A stretch of DNA of 64,000 nucleotides from Sedimentisphaerales bacterium (lineage in GTDB: Bacteria > Planctomycetota > Phycisphaerae > Sedimentisphaerales > SM23-30): positions 96,001 to 160,000 of the forward strand of contig CAXXFK010000040.1 of assembly GCA_963663965.2 (NCBI GenBank), read 5' to 3'. The position numbers and the translations under genes are program-made. The notes beneath the pieces are model-generated. The model was given only the letters and a program-made list of their open reading frames with translations. It had not been told where the DNA came from and made no database searches. Shown here piece by piece: positions 7,020 through 14,200 of the stretch (positions within the stretch are counted from its first letter, which is position 1; the number at the start of each line of letters is the position of its first letter).

Positions 7020-8543
7020 ATGATGGATAGAAGACATTTCCTCAAGTCTGCCGGATTTATGATTTCCGGATCAGCCCTGTTTACCCACGTTACCGATGTG
7101 ATGGCCGCGGCCACGGCTGGCGCTGAGTCGAAAAAGCCCAACATCGTGTTCATCATGACCGACCAGCAGTTTGGAGATGCCATGAGCTGCCGCATGGGCA
7201 AGCGTTATCTCAACACGCCGGCCATGGACAGTCTGGCTGAAAATGGGGTGTTTTTTTCCCGGGCTTACACGCCCAACCCGCTATGTATGCCCGCCCGGAA
7301 CTCGATCTTTACCGGGCGCTATCCCCATGAGACCGGGGTAACCCAAAATGCCAACCCCCAGGGCGGCCGCCTGGCCCTGGAGTTTGTCTTCATGGGAACC
7401 TATTTCCGCAATGCCGGATACACCACGGCTTACACCGGCAAATGGCATATCTGTCTTGACAGCAATGATACCCAAGCCCACGGTTTCCAGATTTTAGCAC
7501 GCCCCAAGCTTGAGAATCCCCAGGACGATAATTATGACTCTCGAATTTCTCATTCGGCCGTGGAATTCCTGCGGCAAAAACATCAGCAGCCGTTCCTGCT
7601 GGTCGTCAGTTTATTGAATCCACACAATATCTGCGAATGGGCTCGCCGCCTGGCCGGACGACAACAGAAGCTTAACTGCGGAGAGATCGGTTCGCCCCCG
7701 CAGTCGGATCAGCTGCCCCCGGCGCCGCAGAACCTGGAAGTGCCCCAAAACGAATCCGATACCATGATTACCCTGCGCAAGGCGTATCAGGTTCCGACGG
7801 GGTCGTTCCCGGTCGGAGATTTTACGGCGGAAACCTGGCGGCAGCACCGATGGGGATACTATCGGATGATCGAAAAGGTGGACGGCGAGATAGCCGGAAT
7901 CCTTAACGCGCTGAAGGCGTCCGGCCTCGAAAATGACACAGTCGTTATTTTTACCAGCGATCACGGCGACTGTGCCGGAGCCCATCGTTTCAATCAGAAA
8001 ACCGTTTTCTACGAAGAGTCCGCCCGTGTTCCGCTGATTATCTCTTATCCGGGTAAAACCCCCAAAGCGGTGTCTGACCGGCTGGTGAATACGGGGGTGG
8101 ATATTCTTCCCACAATGCTGGATTTTGCCGGAGTGCAACCCCCTGCACCACTGAAAGGCCGCTCTCTGAAACCTGTCGCGCTGGGAGAACCCGTATCTCA
8201 ATGGCGCGATTATGTCGTCGTTGAAAACAACATGACCCAGACGCCTGATGTGATGGACGGTATCGTTCCCAAATCCAAAGGCCGAATGGTTCGCACCGGG
8301 CAGTTCAAGTATTGTCTCTATCAGTACGGTCAACAGCGCGAATCCCTGTTTGATATGGAACACGATCCGCTGGAAACGGAGAACCTCGCCAGGAATCCGA
8401 AATATCACGATATTCTACTTGAGCACCGTAAATTGTTGTCGGAATTCGCAGATCAATACCATGATACTCTCGTCGCCGAAATGTTAGCCGACAATATCAA
8501 ACCGAGACCGTTTCCCAAAGCATCAGAAAAGCAAAAATCCTAG
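7020..8543 (+). CDS. Tat-exported formylglycine-dependent sulfatase (S1)
   Basis: RRHFLK Tat motif; PNIVFIMTDQ; CMPAR (CxPxR); GKWH; FTSDHGD. Confidence 0.93.
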   Translation: MMDRRHFLKSAGFMISGSALFTHVTDVMAAATAGAESKKPNIVFIMTDQQFGDAMSCRMGKRYLNTPAMDSLAENGVFFSRAYTPNPLCMPARNSIFTGRYPHETGVTQNANPQGGRLALEFVFMGTYFRNAGYTTAYTGKWHICLDSNDTQAHGFQILARPKLENPQDDNYDSRISHSAVEFLRQKHQQPFLLVVSLLNPHNICEWARRLAGRQQKLNCGEIGSPPQSDQLPPAPQNLEVPQNESDTMITLRKAYQVPTGSFPVGDFTAETWRQHRWGYYRMIEKVDGEIAGILNALKASGLENDTVVIFTSDHGDCAGAHRFNQKTVFYEESARVPLIISYPGKTPKAVSDRLVNTGVDILPTMLDFAGVQPPAPLKGRSLKPVALGEPVSQWRDYVVVENNMTQTPDVMDGIVPKSKGRMVRTGQFKYCLYQYGQQRESLFDMEHDPLETENLARNPKYHDILLEHRKLLSEFADQYHDTLVAEMLADNIKPRPFPKASEKQKS

Positions 8544-8709
8544 TCGCACGCTCAAAAACAGCCGGTAGCCTCAACAAGCGGTCTCAAAATAGCCTCTTCG
8601 CCCCCCGCACAGCGCCGCTTGTGAATGCCTATACCCGCCTATGCATCTCCCCCGTTTTTCAATTCCAAACCGAACCCCCACAAGCATTACCGAAGCCCAA
8701 TGAGTCAAA

Positions 8710-8810
8710 AATCCGCCTCAGGCGGGCTGCCAGTCTCTGGCCGGGGGTGTCAACCCGCCGGAAAATTCGCCCCCCATCCCCTCAAAGGCCTGAAAGGCCG
8801 GCAGGCAGAA
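8710..8810. repeat. Cluster of short REP-like palindromes
   Basis: CCGCCTCAGGCGG, GCCGGGGTGTCAACCCGCCGG and GGCCTGAAAGGCC; related CCGCC..GGCGG palindromes near 11691 and 58609. Confidence 0.5.
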
Positions 8811-8924
8811 TGACTCATTCCAAACATTCTCCTGACTGCCTGATCCACATCATCGACTATGCTAAAATGATTCATCATACTTTGATCCATCCTGTCTCAT
8901 CTTGTGATCTCGTCAAAATATTTG

Positions 8925-9041
8925 CTACAAAATCTCAACGATCTCCATCATCACCTGCCAGCGGTCATTGAAGTAATAGTGCGTCACAGTATCCACCGCC
9001 TCGCCCGGCATCCGCATCTCGATGCGGCGTCCCAAGATATT
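8925..9041 (-). pseudogene. Rhs/YD-repeat core stub, copy 1
   Basis: Translates NILGRRIEMRMPGEAVDTVTHYYFNDRWQVMMEIVEIL*, matching the YDALGRR...T.YYY...WQV.EE pattern of Rhs cores. Confidence 0.7.
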
Positions 9042-9046
9042 TTACA

Positions 9047-9601
9047 TTATGGGAAATCTATTTTGATTGACTGCGCTTCCGGTTTTCCAATTTTTTTAAT
9101 TAATTCGCTTCTTTTAATCGGAATACTAATTGGGGGGGTATCAGGTATAATCAAAATACACAGATTTGTTTTCGTTTTATCATATTCAAGACCAACACTG
9201 ATATCAATTTCTTCATTAGTCAAATAAATCTTAAAATCATGGATAAGGTATCCATTTAAATATTTTGTTCCAATGGCTATAGTACCATCCGTATTTATCT
9301 CATAGTCAATTTCCGGTTGAGCATCTAATAACTCTTTGATTTGTTCCCGGCTAATATCATTAATGGGAATATCAAGGTTATTGAAATTCAATCTGATATC
9401 AGAATTTTTATAACCGGTAATATCGACACCATAAATTGTTATGTCAAATTTTGAGTGTCCACTGCCAACAAATCTGAGCTTTCCACCATCGTAAAATATA
9501 TCATATCTTTTCAAAAAAGTATTAAATTGAATCTCATACCAGACGATCCATATCGTCAAAATTATTAGTACAATGATTACATATTTTCTTTTCATTATCA
9601 C
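9047..9601 (-). CDS. AT-rich hypothetical protein with N-terminal membrane anchor (putative orphan immunity protein)
   Basis: MKRKYVIIVLIILTIWIVW N-terminus (ATG start at 9595 likely); low GC; followed directly by an Rhs stub. Confidence 0.65.
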   Translation of the reverse strand: MIMKRKYVIIVLIILTIWIVWYEIQFNTFLKRYDIFYDGGKLRFVGSGHSKFDITIYGVDITGYKNSDIRLNFNNLDIPINDISREQIKELLDAQPEIDYEINTDGTIAIGTKYLNGYLIHDFKIYLTNEEIDISVGLEYDKTKTNLCILIIPDTPPISIPIKRSELIKKIGKPEAQSIKIDFP

Positions 9602-9618
9602 AACACAATATCCTGACA

Positions 9619-9690
9619 GATAAGCGTACCCTATAAATTTTCAGTCACTATTTTCTGATCCATCCTGTCATCCTGTCTAAATTATTTTTC
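9619..9690. repeat. REP-like CTGATCCATCCTGTC-ATCCTGTCTAAA repeat (short form)
   Basis: Related copies at ~8882-8920, 10436-10505 and 11192-11295. Confidence 0.8.
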
Positions 9691-9774
9691 TAAATTTATT
9701 CATCAATCCCATTGCCATAGACATACAACTCTTATTAGCTTTAATAAAAATGGCGTTATTTCAACTTGTTAGAT

Positions 9775-10233
9775 CTAGGGCAGATTTAGACCTTTGTATT
9801 TTTTTGTAATTCTCTTATCGATTTCATAATGTCCATCGGTATTTCTTTTAATACAAAATACTTCTGCATCAATACAAGGAATAGGCCAATAGCCATATAT
9901 CTGAACTATTACCAACATCTCATCTTCTAATTGTTTCGCCTCAGCTCTCTGATCACAACCTTCAGGAGTTATCCCATATTCCAAAGCGCTATCAGCTCCA
10001 CCTAGATGATAATCTACTGTCCATAATTCAATATCATTCATACTCTTAAATATGACGGAATTAATGCCTCTGAATCTCGTGCCATATGGCTTCATGGATA
10101 TCACTAAATTGGGATTAGATAATATGTCTATATTGACCCCATGATATGGCATAATACCTATTAGCCAAATTAAAACAAATATAACGCAACACAATATTGT
10201 AACAATCAAAATTTTAAACCATTTAATTAGCAT
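9775..10233 (-). CDS. AT-rich hypothetical protein with N-terminal membrane anchor (putative orphan immunity protein)
   Basis: ATG at 10233 gives MLIKWFKILIVTILCCVIFVLIW; shares a W..L.YG..P..Q motif with the neighbouring gene at 10624. Confidence 0.65.
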   Translation of the reverse strand: MLIKWFKILIVTILCCVIFVLIWLIGIMPYHGVNIDILSNPNLVISMKPYGTRFRGINSVIFKSMNDIELWTVDYHLGGADSALEYGITPEGCDQRAEAKQLEDEMLVIVQIYGYWPIPCIDAEVFCIKRNTDGHYEIDKRITKKYKGLNLP

Positions 10234-10435
10234 ATTAGAACTCGTTCCTAAACCTGATGAAATACAGGTCTGATAACCCAAACTTGGATTGGGGCATACC
10301 CAAAGAATAATGGCAGTGTGTCAAAGACTTCATTCCCCAACCCAAAGCGCGGCCGGGTAACCTCGACAACCTGTCACGAATGGCACCGGTCAAGCACAGC
10401 TTGTCGTTGTATAACGCATTATTATCCATCACTTT

Positions 10436-10505
10436 TTTCTGATCCATCCTGTCAATGAGCTGAAAGTCCCGATGGCTATCGGGATGATCCTGTCTAAAAT
10501 ATTTT
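10436..10505. repeat. REP-like repeat, long form with internal TCCCGATGGCTATCGGGA palindrome
   Basis: 70 bp identical to 11226-11295. Confidence 0.9.
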
Positions 10506-10510
10506 TCTTT

Positions 10511-10618
10511 AAAATCTCGACGATCTCCATCATCACCTGCCAGCGGTCATTGAAGTAATAGCGCGTCACAGTATCCACCACCTCACCCGCATCTCGATGC
10601 GGTTGTCTAGGGCATAAT
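10511..10618 (-). pseudogene. Rhs/YD-repeat core stub, copy 2
   Basis: Near-identical to 8925-9041 with a 7-nt deletion; reads YALDNRIEMR../DTVTRYYFNDRWQVMMEIVEIL. Confidence 0.7.
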
Positions 10619-10623
10619 TAATT

Positions 10624-11107
10624 TCAATTATTGGTCCGTTCTACAAATACAATATTATTTTTTTCTATCTTAAAGTATTCCTCTCTACTACCAACGAACG
10701 CTGAAATAAAGGCATCATATTGCCAGTCAGAATATATTTCATATACTTTTCCCTCAACCAAATCAACAGGCTTGCCATCCGCAGGAATATTTTGCTTGGC
10801 ATTATTGATTACGCCATTGTCAGTTTCAAATTCTTTAGGTATTTCGCCATATGCCAATTTCTCCTCATAGAAATAATTTAAGTTGATATCCCAAACAATA
10901 CTGTTCGTTTCGGCATCTCTAATTATGAGCCTGAGTAATCCATTTGTTGTCCCATATTTAATTTTGAAGATAAGTTCATTATCTACCAACGACGGCTGAA
11001 TACTTCCTAGTTTTTTTATTACACCAATAAAATTTAATAAAACCACAATGCCCGCCGCAACAATCACTAACACTATTGCTTTTTTTATATAATTAAATTT
11101 TTTTCAT
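10624..11107 (-). CDS. AT-rich hypothetical membrane-anchored protein (putative orphan immunity protein); likely ATG at 11107 is out of frame by one extra A
   Basis: ORF 10624..11073. With A6 instead of A7 after the ATG it reads MKKFNYIKKAIVLVIVAAG. Confidence 0.6.
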
Positions 11108-11191
11108 AGAAACACCGCATAAGTATTCATACATAAATCATTCTATTTATTATCTATTCAATTCCCCACACTATTAAGCCGGGCGATATCC

Positions 11192-11295
11192 GATAAGCGC
11201 ACCCAATGATTTTTTCTGTCACGTCTTTCTGATCCATCCTGTCAATGAGCTGAAAGTCCCGATGGCTATCGGGATGATCCTGTCTAAAATATTTT
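11192..11295. repeat. REP-like repeat, long form
   Basis: Begins GATAAGCGCACCC as at 9619 (GATAAGCGTACCC); 3' 70 bp identical to 10436-10505. Confidence 0.9.
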
Positions 11296-11884
11296 CTTCA
11301 TAATATCATTCGACAAAACTCAGCGCTTCATCGTACAAGCTTCCATAAGACAACACCCGAACTATCCGCCTCTTCCCCCTCCCCTAACCATCAGAATATC
11401 CCTGTCTTGAACTCTTTTCATATCAGCCACTCCATCCAGATTAAAATCTAATTTACCTCCCTCCATCATATCACCTCATCCAGTTAAATACAAATCCCCA
11501 TAACAAAATCATAAAATTCCCTGCCGTACTACCATCCTTTATAGACTTGTTTTTTCATGAAGTTTTTAAGAACAAATTTATAAGTATTTAATCGCCCTAT
11601 GGTTAATAGTCATTTCCGGTACGAAGTTTCAATCCAAATCTATCCCTCAATCAGGCCAGGGCCCTTCGTGTAGCGCCGCAGGTCGAAGATCCGCCTCAGG
11701 AGGGCGCTCTTCGTGAAGCCGAAGGCGCTTCGTGGTTTAAATCTTAATCGCTTCCAGTTGATTCTAGGTTCTTGTTCAATCGCCCCGAGATAATTCATAA
11801 TTCATCTTCTTCGCAGTTTTTCTTGGTGGCTTTGTGCCTTTGTGTGAAACATCTTAATTTCTAATACAAAATTACTCATAATAT

Positions 11885-11913
11885 TTGACTTTCATAAAAC
11901 ATTACATTATAAT
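11885..11913 (+). promoter_or_regulatory. Near-consensus sigma70 promoter with no protein gene downstream
   Basis: TTGACT (11885-11890), 17-bp spacer, TATAAT (11908-11913). Confidence 0.7.
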
Positions 11914-11985
11914 AATCATCTGGTAAACAACCCCCGAATCCACCGACATAAGTACGGTGTCAATGCTTCAGCATGAAAAAATTGT

Positions 11986-11998
11986 TGTTCTTTGACAA
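11986..11998 (+). promoter_or_regulatory. boxA-like antitermination site
   Basis: TGTTCTTTGACAA versus E. coli rrn boxA TGCTCTTTAACA(A); preceded by hairpin CACCG-N9-CGGTG at 11941-11959. Confidence 0.5.
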
Positions 11999-12099
11999 CT
12001 CAATACAAAAACATCTGGGCCGCCCAATTATCCGGCTTGAGTTAACTTGCCATATTTATCATAGTTTCACCCCACAGCCGCTTAATACCCCCATGAATT

Positions 12100-12435
12100 C
12101 CAAACGAACCCAATTCCGGCATTTTTAACCATAAACTATTATATGATAATTAGTAACAACATATCCTGTATCACAATCCGCCCCATTCCAAAACAAACCC
12201 AACCCAATTAACTCAAGCATCCCTCACCGGATTTCATAATCCCCCATTCAGCCCAACACCCACGCTTCCAAACGAACCCAATCTTACCCAGATTAACATC
12301 TGCCACCCTATCCCCAGCTTTCATAACCCATTATAACCCATCCCGATCCAAACGAACCCAACCACACGAAAATCAATTATAACTTCATTATTTACAGAAC
12401 ATAACAGCAATATCACATTTCACCAAAACAAAAAT
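12100..12435 (+). repeat. Spaced repeat array, CCAAACGAACCCAA / CCAAAACAAACCCAA, ~80-bp period
   Basis: Repeats start at 12100, 12188, 12268, 12348 and (degenerate) 12423; spacers differ and are G-poor. Confidence 0.85.
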
Positions 12436-12457
12436 GGGCGGAATGTTTTCCGCCCAT
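12427..12457 (-). terminator. Intrinsic terminator of the DUF1080 gene
   Basis: ATGGGCGGAA-TGTT-TTCCGCCCAT hairpin with U-tract on the minus strand. Confidence 0.75.
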
Positions 12458-12486
12458 CAGGGATATCATGATCTGAAATCCAAAGC

Positions 12487-13143
12487 TTATGGCAACAGCT
12501 TGACCATAATGTTCTTATAATAGACCGTACTGCCCGGATCGTGCCCTTGCAGGGCGATAGTGCCGCTGGAAACCTTACGGCCGGCCTGTTTGGGCTGACC
12601 GTTCTTCTGAACCTCTTCCGGTTCGGTATAATCAACCGTAACAACGCCATTCACCTTAATGATAATCCGGTTCCCCTGCACGATGATATGCTGGGTAAAC
12701 CATTCATCATCCTTGGCTGGCGCTTCCTTGACATCTTCTACTGCATAGAGTCCGCCAGTCCTGCGCCAGTCACTATGCGAGTTGTTCACCTGAACCTCAT
12801 ACCCCTTGGCCGGCCAGCCGCTATCCTGATATTCAGTATGGAAATACATACCCGAATTCGAATTTGGCTTGGTCATGACATCTGCCTTCCACTCAAAATT
12901 CTTGAAATTGGCATCCGCAACCGGCCCGACATAAAACAAATGACTGCGTTCGCCATTCACCACGATCATCCCGTCTTCAACCTTAAAAGTATCGACATTT
13001 TCATTGGCCTTCCAGCCATCCAGCGTTTTACCGTCAAACAAACTGATCCACTTATCCTTGGGAGCCAGACTTTGACATCCAGTCAAAACCAGCCCCAGTC
13101 CGATCAATGCCATATACATGACTTTTCTCATAACATACTCCAT
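12487..13143 (-). CDS. DUF1080 (3-keto-disaccharide hydrolase family) lipoprotein
   Basis: LTGC lipobox; WISLFDGKTLDGW, NSG, GYEVQV and GTIALQGHD motifs. Confidence 0.9.
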   Translation of the reverse strand: MEYVMRKVMYMALIGLGLVLTGCQSLAPKDKWISLFDGKTLDGWKANENVDTFKVEDGMIVVNGERSHLFYVGPVADANFKNFEWKADVMTKPNSNSGMYFHTEYQDSGWPAKGYEVQVNNSHSDWRRTGGLYAVEDVKEAPAKDDEWFTQHIIVQGNRIIIKVNGVVTVDYTEPEEVQKNGQPKQAGRKVSSGTIALQGHDPGSTVYYKNIMVKLLP

Positions 13144-13504
13144 AAATGAGGTTTAGTAATGTCCCGCGATTTTATTTTATCGCACTTATCACAAAAATAG
13201 CCGGTTTCCATCCAAATGCAAGCGTTATTCTTGAACACCCCGGACCTGGCCTGTTTTTTAAAGTACCCGCGTGAATCCAATTTCATTTGACCCACTCTGC
13301 TTCAGCTTGACAGCAATCTAATCCATTTATATCAAACAGGTTATGTCTGCACATCCCGAAGTAAACACCATAATCCAGTCATCAAACGGGAACTCGCGCC
13401 CGTTTTTACACTTGTTTTACTGATCTGGAAAGGGTATTTCGATTATAAATATAATAGATGAATGCTATTTGAACATCCATAAATCCGCGTAAAACGGTGA
13501 GATT

Positions 13505-14200
13505 ATGAATAAAATTGAAATTTTAGTCGTCGAAGATGAACCCCGGATCAGTGAAGGCCTGAAAGATTTTTTATCGTTCCAAGGCTATAGCGTGACCGTA
13601 GTCACTGACGGACAGAGCGCCGACGATACCGTTAAAAGCAAACGTTTCGACCTGATACTACTGGATTTAATGCTGCCCATTATCAGCGGAGAGCGGCTTT
13701 GCGAAGACTGGCGCGAATCGGGTTTGCAAACGCCCATCATTATGCTCACCGCCAAAGGCCAGGAACACGAACGCGTCAGCGGATTGAATCTGGGGGCGGA
13801 TGATTACATTACCAAACCCTTTTCTCTGGAAGAACTGCTGGCACGGATCAAAGCGGTTTTACGTCGTACCGAACCGGGCCGGGGTGTGGGTAAAGAATTT
13901 ATCTTTGGCCCCTGGCAGGTGGATATTTCCGCGCTCAAAATCCATAATAGTTCCAGTGAACATCAAATCACGACCCGCGAGGCCGATCTGATCCGTTACT
14001 TCGCTTCCAATCCCAATCGTGTGATCAGCCGGGATGAGTTGTTTGAACAGGTCTGGCATGAAAAAATGACCGAACTGGGAACGCGCACCATCGACATGCA
14101 CATCGCCAAATTACGCGCCAAAGTTGAAGAAGACACTGGCGAACCCAAATTGATCAAGACAGTGCGTGGCGCCGGTTACGTGCATGAAGAAACGGATTAA
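13505..14200 (+). CDS. OmpR-family response regulator
   Basis: Receiver (VVEDE, DLMLP, GADDYITKPF) plus winged helix (RTIDMHIAKLR, TVRGAGY). Confidence 0.95.
   Translation: MNKIEILVVEDEPRISEGLKDFLSFQGYSVTVVTDGQSADDTVKSKRFDLILLDLMLPIISGERLCEDWRESGLQTPIIMLTAKGQEHERVSGLNLGADDYITKPFSLEELLARIKAVLRRTEPGRGVGKEFIFGPWQVDISALKIHNSSSEHQITTREADLIRYFASNPNRVISRDELFEQVWHEKMTELGTRTIDMHIAKLRAKVEEDTGEPKLIKTVRGAGYVHEETD

Follow-up and report, generated by a model that had tools for sequence, protein, structure and literature searches.

Why a bacterial genome should hold a strong promoter and a boxA-like antitermination site leading into an array of short repeats, with no reading frame to be expressed, is the question raised by one locus of the window, the 64,000-nucleotide stretch of a Sedimentisphaerales contig analysed here. 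The first-pass annotation described the locus as an orphan array of CRISPR-like architecture, either an untranslated multi-unit RNA or a set of recombination or protein-binding sites, and expected it to point to an undescribed system. That expectation is upheld, as cassettes of this kind are apparently the entry point to an undescribed class of elements, for which a mechanism is proposed below; no publication on the repeat motif or on the signature of its linked protein came up in literature searches.

Layout of the gene-free cassette

All elements of the cassette lie on the forward strand. The AT-rich upstream part of a shared promoter module (11850..11884, aligned with 11 sister cassettes) leads into a sigma-70-type promoter, TTGACT-N17-TATAAT (11885..11913, 11 of 12 matches), which belongs to the cassette promoter family. 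By itself this promoter is at chance level (7 sites as compared with 7.1 in shuffles, at a cut of 9/12); it is nevertheless conserved across the family, and its original identification holds. A GGTAAAC start motif (11922..11928), seen in most of the 12 leaders that combine promoter and boxA, is followed by the boxA-like site GTTCTTTGACAA (11987..11998), recognised in the first-pass annotation as well, which is one base off the boxA of the organism's own rRNA leader, GATCTTTGACAA, precedes an AAATA-like tract, and presumably acts in antitermination. Beyond it lies a short palindrome module, TGGGCCGCCCAA (12016..12027), with copies of GGGCCGCCCA elsewhere near cores.

The array itself is built from four copies of a 12-nt core, with periods of 88, 80 and 80 in a 15-nt register. 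Core 1 (AAACGAACCCAA, 12102..12113) and core 4 (AAACGAACCCAA, 12350..12361) belong to type-A units, each followed at an offset of 18 by a degenerate AT-rich element, TAA...TTA at 12132..12156 and TAAC... at 12380..12404, respectively. Core 2 (AAACAAACCCAA, 12191..12202) lies in a type-B-like unit, and core 3 (AAACGAACCCAA, 12270..12281) in a unit of type B, the second type of core unit, which has 15 copies among the 233 non-ORF cores of the genome. The A-B-B-A order of spacers proposed earlier is borne out (2000 shuffles per pair; p 0.011 for spacers 1 and 4, 0.0015 for 2 and 3, and 0.26-0.67 for the remaining four) and is explained by the unit types, as units 1 and 4 are degenerate members of the type with an AT-rich element and unit 3 is of the second type. 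A fifth repeat had been placed at 12423 and a strong hairpin taken as the end of the array; the former is not a core copy, being the T-tail of an intrinsic terminator on the minus strand (12423..12458, 11-bp stem plus T-tail), and the latter (12433-12458) is the stem of that terminator. Both lie outside the array and belong to the convergent gene of a 3-keto-disaccharide hydrolase (12487..13143, minus strand; PF06439, E 6e-46), an unrelated neighbour. No sense-strand terminator was found at the array and no sense gene lies downstream of it.

The composition of the locus is as unusual as first described. The top strand from 12090 to 12433 is rich in C and A and poor in G (A129, C116, T77, G22; skew -0.68), a skew of at least 0.6 being found in 0.05% of 20,000 random 345-nt windows, and all three frames contain stop codons.

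The distinction from CRISPR drawn in the first-pass annotation also stands. CRISPR repeats measure about 23-47 nt and are separated by spacers that are unique and nearly constant in length, whereas the repeats of the window measure 12-15 nt, alternate with related spacers of 64-73 nt, and are unrelated to the genome's own cas-linked repeat. An Rfam scan of positions 8500-13600 gave no match near gathering score and no CRISPR match. The comparison of spacers with phage and plasmid sequences that had been suggested returned, from 50,697 phage and 72,556 plasmid records, merely chance-level matches to the promoter (E 0.6). Identity as a CRISPR array was rejected on these grounds of repeat length, spacers, repeat mismatch and lack of Rfam or spacer matches, and identity as a type III toxin-antitoxin array on the lack of a downstream sense gene, the lack of an Rfam match, and the occurrence of the motif in either orientation elsewhere. 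The genome's own CRISPR locus has cas1 at G000:C33:87316-89709 and an array of 18 repeats with a period of 66.

The surroundings of the cassette contain further repeated material. Other dispersed repeat modules lie upstream of it at 11220-11300, 11630-11745 and 11790-11850, and the segment 11675-11725, REP-like by look, has about 60 blastn matches elsewhere in the genome. Positions 11001-11475 are duplicated at G000:C25:96052-96529 with 92% identity, and run X2 contains a variant strain copy. Three consecutive AT-rich orphan ORFs on the minus strand (9047-11073; 184, 168 and 149 aa) are cassette-like and have no Pfam match.

The core motif and its linked gene

The locus had been called an orphan, a description that does not survive a search of its own genome: the core, AAACRAASCCAA, occurs in 258 exact copies in the 7.2-Mb assembly, as compared with 9 for a reversed-pattern control. 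It is an asymmetric 12-mer, neither inverted repeat nor palindrome, and sometimes forms inverted pairs. Its 119 clusters include 25 with an unnamed gene designated STGP, 14 with a second gene family (family 2), 21 with boxA, 9 with a promoter only and 50 others; the search for further clusters that had been recommended identifies 12 loci that combine promoter, boxA and core. The window array is a gene-free, presumably non-autonomous copy of this dispersed cassette family, which may well be a selfish element.

Many cores are accompanied by a second element at a fixed distance. An AT-rich TAA...TTA element, 25 nt in length, begins exactly at offset 18 after 93 of the 233 non-ORF cores; anywhere downstream, such an element is found at 110 of the 233, as compared with 16 in shuffles and 6 upstream. 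A loose match to the IHF consensus peaks at offset 30 (65 of 233), and a single gene of the HU/IHF family was found in the genome. Between the promoters of an rRNA leader (G000:C13:~232880), the sequence GAACGAAGCCAA agrees with the core at 11 of 12 bases, which may be chance.

The association of promoter and boxA with the array, which had been thought meaningful, proves so in the source genome. A core lies within 500 nt downstream of 24 of the 67 boxA-like sites (background 1.2%) and of 12 of the 14 sites having both promoter and boxA; genome-wide, a core comes within 700 nt after 48 of the 215 strong promoter-like sites, and the 45 nt upstream of the promoter are 84% AT at core-linked sites (n=47) as compared with 62% at the others (n=168). 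The 12 leaders with promoter and boxA share these two elements, the GGT start motif and often GGGCCGCCCAA, and the genes that lie downstream of them are mutually unrelated and point in either direction. Of 66 copies of GGGCCGCCCA, 17 are within 400 nt of a core, and the palindrome module is likewise found upstream of a core in the relative G021 (L122). The same type of promoter drives the boxA cassettes, STGP and family 2. Whatever the mechanism, the cassettes distribute strong promoters and signals for antitermination over the genome. The co-occurrence with boxA does not extend to relatives: in the core-rich genomes G021, G030, G035 and G036 a core lies within 500 nt downstream at 1 of 30 boxA loci (30 of 40 sites tested), and boxA was found at 0 of 12 core loci of G132. 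Among the source genome and these five relatives, the addition of boxA is seen in the source genome only.

The gene that multiplies with the core matches no family in conventional searches. STGP is an unnamed ORF of 279 aa (837 nt) present in 26 intact copies, 89-96% identical, whose variable sites fall mostly in third codon positions (43/24/160), a pattern of purifying selection. A profile search retrieved 35,821 clusters at 50% identity (E up to 1e-10). At full length, STGP has no match in Pfam, NCBIfam or PHROG, a sequence search of the PDB returned none, and the ESM Atlas returned unnamed clusters only. The predicted structure (pLDDT 77) is a long helical hairpin behind a basic N-terminus, with no classical HTH and no recognised catalytic fold; fold searches of BFVD and PDB gave nothing at E 0.001, the best Z of 7.8 being generic helical and excluding no family, and detected no HUH or nuclease fold. 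With an STGP relative as query, tblastn found no match in INPHARED phages and six in plasmids. An STGP cassette has one to four core units before the gene, a core read in frame as PNEPN in its tail, and, after the gene, a hairpin whose sequence varies and which is succeeded by TGCGC; a hairpin often stands ahead of the gene as well. In the 26 cassettes, the approximately 95 nt after the stop codon are 42% identical as compared with 93% in the gene, and the post-stop hairpin, with TGCGC next to it, is kept despite changing stems.

A consistently linked gene, for which the first-pass annotation had recommended a search, is at hand: the core travels with STGP across genomes. At 80 further STGP loci, taken from genomes of Acidobacteriota, Planctomycetota, Alphaproteobacteria, Actinomycetota, Chloroflexota and Verrucomicrobiota, cores peak at the 3' end of STGP, 400-800 nt after its start, in sense orientation at 29 loci and antisense at 20, with 3 for the reversed control and near zero in the flanks. 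No recurring neighbour gene, integrase or transposase was found at these loci. STGP is present in 4 of 4 core-rich relatives and 4 of 36 others (40 relatives), and in 7 of 8 genomes with at least 10 cores and 5 of 92 others in a sample of 100 genomes of the class, 88 of which lack it by search; the two samples share G035, and related genomes within them are not independent. G114 is an exception, with 14 cores and no STGP gene detected, and G084 has 37 cores with a reversed control that is also high, at 23. Four Acidobacteria, picked for having the gene, have 81, 52, 22 and 116 cores and 77, 8, 76 and 42 STGP matches, respectively, with controls of 3-5; one alphaproteobacterium has 2 cores and 1 match, and G030 has 176 cores and 2 STGP genes. 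In G132, arrays with a period of 87-88 nt look, by eye, like the core-bearing tail of that genome's own STGP gene.

A core that is found in either orientation and in any frame acts as DNA, and the PNEP(N) peptide would be a consequence of this. The earlier suspicion that the repeats derive from a PNEPN-type coding tail was thus correct in that two multiplied genes translate the core as PNEP(N), and not in that, near the relatives of these genes, it lies in any frame and either orientation. Whichever mechanism holds, the core is probably a DNA site tied to STGP, and the first-pass view of an array of candidate protein-binding sites can be retained as a possibility. The link of a 12-bp motif to a gene in Planctomycetota, Acidobacteriota and other phyla makes a very large unannotated family testable as one protein and one site.

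Terminase homology and a packaging proposal

The N-terminal part of STGP leads to phages. Genes of viral contigs share its residues ~8-39 with up to 81% identity, and the next ORF is a terminase large subunit (TerL) in 10 of 32 tested (32 of 40, near-duplicates excluded); small-terminase PHROGs are matched by 6 of 19 tested phage carriers. With HHalign, STGP matches the group upstream of TerL at 99.2% over 96 columns and two more phage groups at 98.3% and 97.5%. The likeness to small terminases (TerS) lies mainly in ~40 N-terminal residues, and TerS PHROGs are matched, weakly, by merely 1-3 of 86 STGP relatives. By these comparisons, the N-terminal half of STGP has its relatives among the small terminase subunits of phages, and the TerS layout, a helical-hairpin oligomerisation core with an N-terminal DNA-binding part (PMC9611059), may be matched by the hairpin and basic N-terminus of the STGP model. 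The 26 copies in the source genome stand alone and do not adjoin terL.

Another connection to terminases comes from a gene unrelated to STGP. Family 2, a small-terminase gene of the source genome with 15 loci, has the core in its tail, again read as PNEP(N), and one copy directly precedes a TerL of 489 aa (phrog_2, E 3e-12). This TerL (G000:C30:122209-123675; L191:15210-16676, minus strand), like its counterparts at L195-L217, has no capsid genes nearby. A search of the genome with phrog_2 gave two weak ATPase matches and missed this lone TerL, which was found via its neighbour. Chromosomal TerL was found in 33 of 41 genomes, among them 21 of the 22 high-quality genomes of the order, as a single copy almost without exception, and is preceded by a 140-aa gene at 13 of 23 loci of relatives; 8 of 12 such genes match the TerS family phrog_2538, and an HMM of the 13 retrieves 12 family-2 ORFs with weak E-values (3e-5 to 3.5e-4). 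Family 2 thus appears homologous to TerS families, at these weak E-values, and lies upstream of terL in one copy. The usual neighbours of TerL, as labelled by eye, are the 140-aa HTH small terminase, a ParB-like gene and a GNAT/ATPase-like gene, and by these labels the conserved locus might be a domesticated packaging module or a split gene transfer agent. A search for a locus of the chromosomal TerL on viral contigs gave none. A gene transfer agent would combine a conserved terminase with portal and capsid genes; the three portal and capsid families searched for (PF05065, phrog_145 and PF04860) were not found in the source genome. Of 41 phage loci having the shared motif, 1 has the core, as does 1 of 24 loci of the chromosomal TerL, namely the source genome's; the core is therefore not a pac inherited from either group. 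More small-terminase-like genes, beside integrase-like genes in satellite-like islands that lack the core, lie at G000:C22:90757-91143 and C24:3674-4048.

On this evidence, the core most likely serves a protein of small-terminase type as its DNA site, and hijacking of packaging from pac-like sites is the best reading of the cassettes, held tentatively as a proposed mechanism whose chances fall a little short of even. The core would be the double-stranded recognition site of the STGP protein, whose oligomers would bind it and recruit a large terminase, brought in by a phage or encoded by the conserved chromosomal gene, with the result that cutting and packaging would begin at the cassettes. DNA adjacent to a core would be over-transferred or re-integrated, and anything between promoter and core amplified. 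We infer binding, cutting, packaging and transfer by STGP from the relationships described above. Gene-free copies would depend on STGP produced elsewhere; untranslated and C-rich, they would be substrates for Rho, and boxA would therefore stand in for the ribosome and let transcription run through the cores. A like arrangement is described for rRNA and CRISPR transcripts, in which boxA, soon after a strong promoter, protects untranslated RNA (PMC13753749). Against packaging, transduction by itself accounts for spread from cell to cell and not for insertion at new sites, and family 2 could be a mere passenger of a strong promoter module.

Known packaging systems offer partial precedents. Phage-inducible chromosomal islands (PICI, including SaPI) are described as encoding a small terminase that diverts the helper TerL and as being accompanied by chromosomal pseudo-pac sites (PMC9006064); in common with the cassettes they have a non-phage TerS, a site of its own, no capsid genes and further sites in the chromosome. 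The cassettes differ in consisting of a lone gene in dozens of copies and in a site whose 12 bases are kept exactly from phylum to phylum, with packaging here a proposal. They also lack an integrase, a replication module and att sites, none of which occurs in the cassettes examined or recurs beside STGP, and identity as a PICI or phage satellite was rejected on this ground. In phage lambda, cosB is associated with IHF, to which the AT-rich element with its IHF-like match beside the core may be likened. In P22 the pac site is located inside the terS gene (PMC9611059), an asymmetric site within a gene of TerS type as in STGP; the STGP cores differ from both phage sites in lying outside a phage genome, at hundreds of sites, with an IHF-like match that is loose.

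A more far-reaching version of the proposal, possible but more doubtful, is that the cassettes are minimal selfish elements distributed across phyla, comprising a TerS-like gene and a 12-bp pac-like site, which would redirect a large terminase to chromosomal sites, reach dozens of copies, give rise to hundreds of gene-free sites (some of them boxA-antiterminated) and be able to capture domesticated terminase genes of the host. Were this true, more than 35,000 unnamed protein clusters would gain a role, and start points of transduction would be written into chromosomes. Packaging, if true, would also mean a mobile element without transposase or integrase and a route that biases gene transfer in uncultured soil and sediment bacteria.

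Competing explanations for the cassettes

In an alternative that is unlikely without being far-fetched, the core is a target of recombination or insertion, in the manner of Neisseria dRS3 or of REPs in RAYT systems; a trans-acting recombinase or HUH nuclease would insert and duplicate modules at cores and so build the arrays, and STGP would be an adaptor or passenger. Consistent with it are the alternation of cores with spacers of different classes at variable periods, the tandem units of 87-88 nt in G132, the solitary cores of G021, whose flanks are unrelated, the variable-sequence hairpin and TGCGC that end STGP cassettes, and the 11 matches to Y1 transposases in the genome. In addition, the cores of 87 of 107 clusters occupy the C-rich strand, a bias that a process coupled to fork direction would produce, with the rRNA operon of the opposite, G-rich strand type; this bias hints at fork-linked insertion and keeps the alternative alive. 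Against it, no recombinase is linked to STGP loci, the core is no inverted repeat, and two unrelated multiplied passengers, both of terminase type, are left unexplained. A search for dif-like sites found no full site.

Two known repeat systems bear on the same issue. Neisseria NIME arrays are described as a 20-bp inverted repeat, dRS3, that alternates with families of 50-150-bp spacers and is exploited by a phage-derived recombinase (PMC1797815). They resemble the cassettes in the combination of a short constant motif with spacer families in dispersed intergenic arrays; the core differs in being asymmetric, in crossing phyla, in following a TerS-like gene and in the added promoter and boxA, and NIME identity was rejected on the asymmetric 12-mer and the lack of a linked recombinase. 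In REP/RAYT systems, palindromic repeats flank a Y1 HUH gene and also occur as non-autonomous copies. Some genomes with the core, G030 among them, similarly combine very few genes with non-autonomous repeats that number in the tens to hundreds; the core forms no hairpin and its linked gene is STGP, and REP/RAYT was rejected because the core is not palindromic and the gene is STGP.

Closer to the first-pass view is the improbable alternative that the boxA cassettes are untranslated RNAs that titrate STGP protein as a sponge, in the manner of an antitoxin. Retention of a strong promoter and boxA in 12 gene-free cassettes is consistent with it, as are the presence of nusB and rho in the genome, a predicted fold of the window RNA that leaves the cores unpaired, and the core units, often with a hairpin, ahead of the STGP gene. 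The structured RNA ending at a hairpin that was originally envisaged is not recovered, however: the hairpin is that of the opposite gene, and the fold is near shuffles without it (z -1.79, 5 of 100 shuffles equally good; -2.95 with it). The small leader hairpin reported earlier does fold in the window, but it is not common to the 12 leaders with promoter and boxA, which have no common fold and no fixed spacing, with 38-73 nt from promoter to boxA. Nor would an RNA be expected to have its core antisense in 20 loci as compared with 29 sense, sometimes as inverted pairs, to lack a sense-strand terminator in the window, or to show no boxA link in five relatives.

Decidedly improbable is a host anti-phage device in which STGP would act as a poison of phage terminase, with the scattered cores retained by selection on the host as decoys for packaging. 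Intactness of 26 of 26 copies under purifying selection, strong promoters, TerS homology and the described diversion of helper TerL by the TerS of PICIs (PMC9006064) would suit such a device. The distribution of the gene, with up to 77 matches per genome and none detected in 88 of 100 genomes of the class, fits selfish spread better, and a defence gene would need no dozens of dispersed copies.

That the array is a functionless remnant, decayed from the 3' coding end of STGP or family 2, is most improbable: tails of both genes are made of core units read as PNEP(N), and PNEPN is present in frames of the window, but the array has stops in every frame and periods that are not multiples of three, no gene remnant lies between promoter and array, and boxA was kept in 12 diverged cassettes while the remaining leader sequence drifted. 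Scarcely credible is a role of the cores as iterons, with STGP the initiator of small replication origins activated by transcription, a role for which the repeats inside the gene (as lambda ori lies in gene O), the AT-rich element at fixed offset and transcription towards the repeats might speak, since neither the STGP model nor the searches have initiator or winged-helix likeness and the homology of STGP points to TerS. Independently of these alternatives, the cassettes explain many spurious "hypothetical proteins" with peptides of the NEPN, KRTQ or QNKAN type. In G021 (L122-L141), a longer motif around the core recurs at 85 places, several apparently within reading frames, and this solitary motif is reminiscent of the accumulation of uptake sequences.
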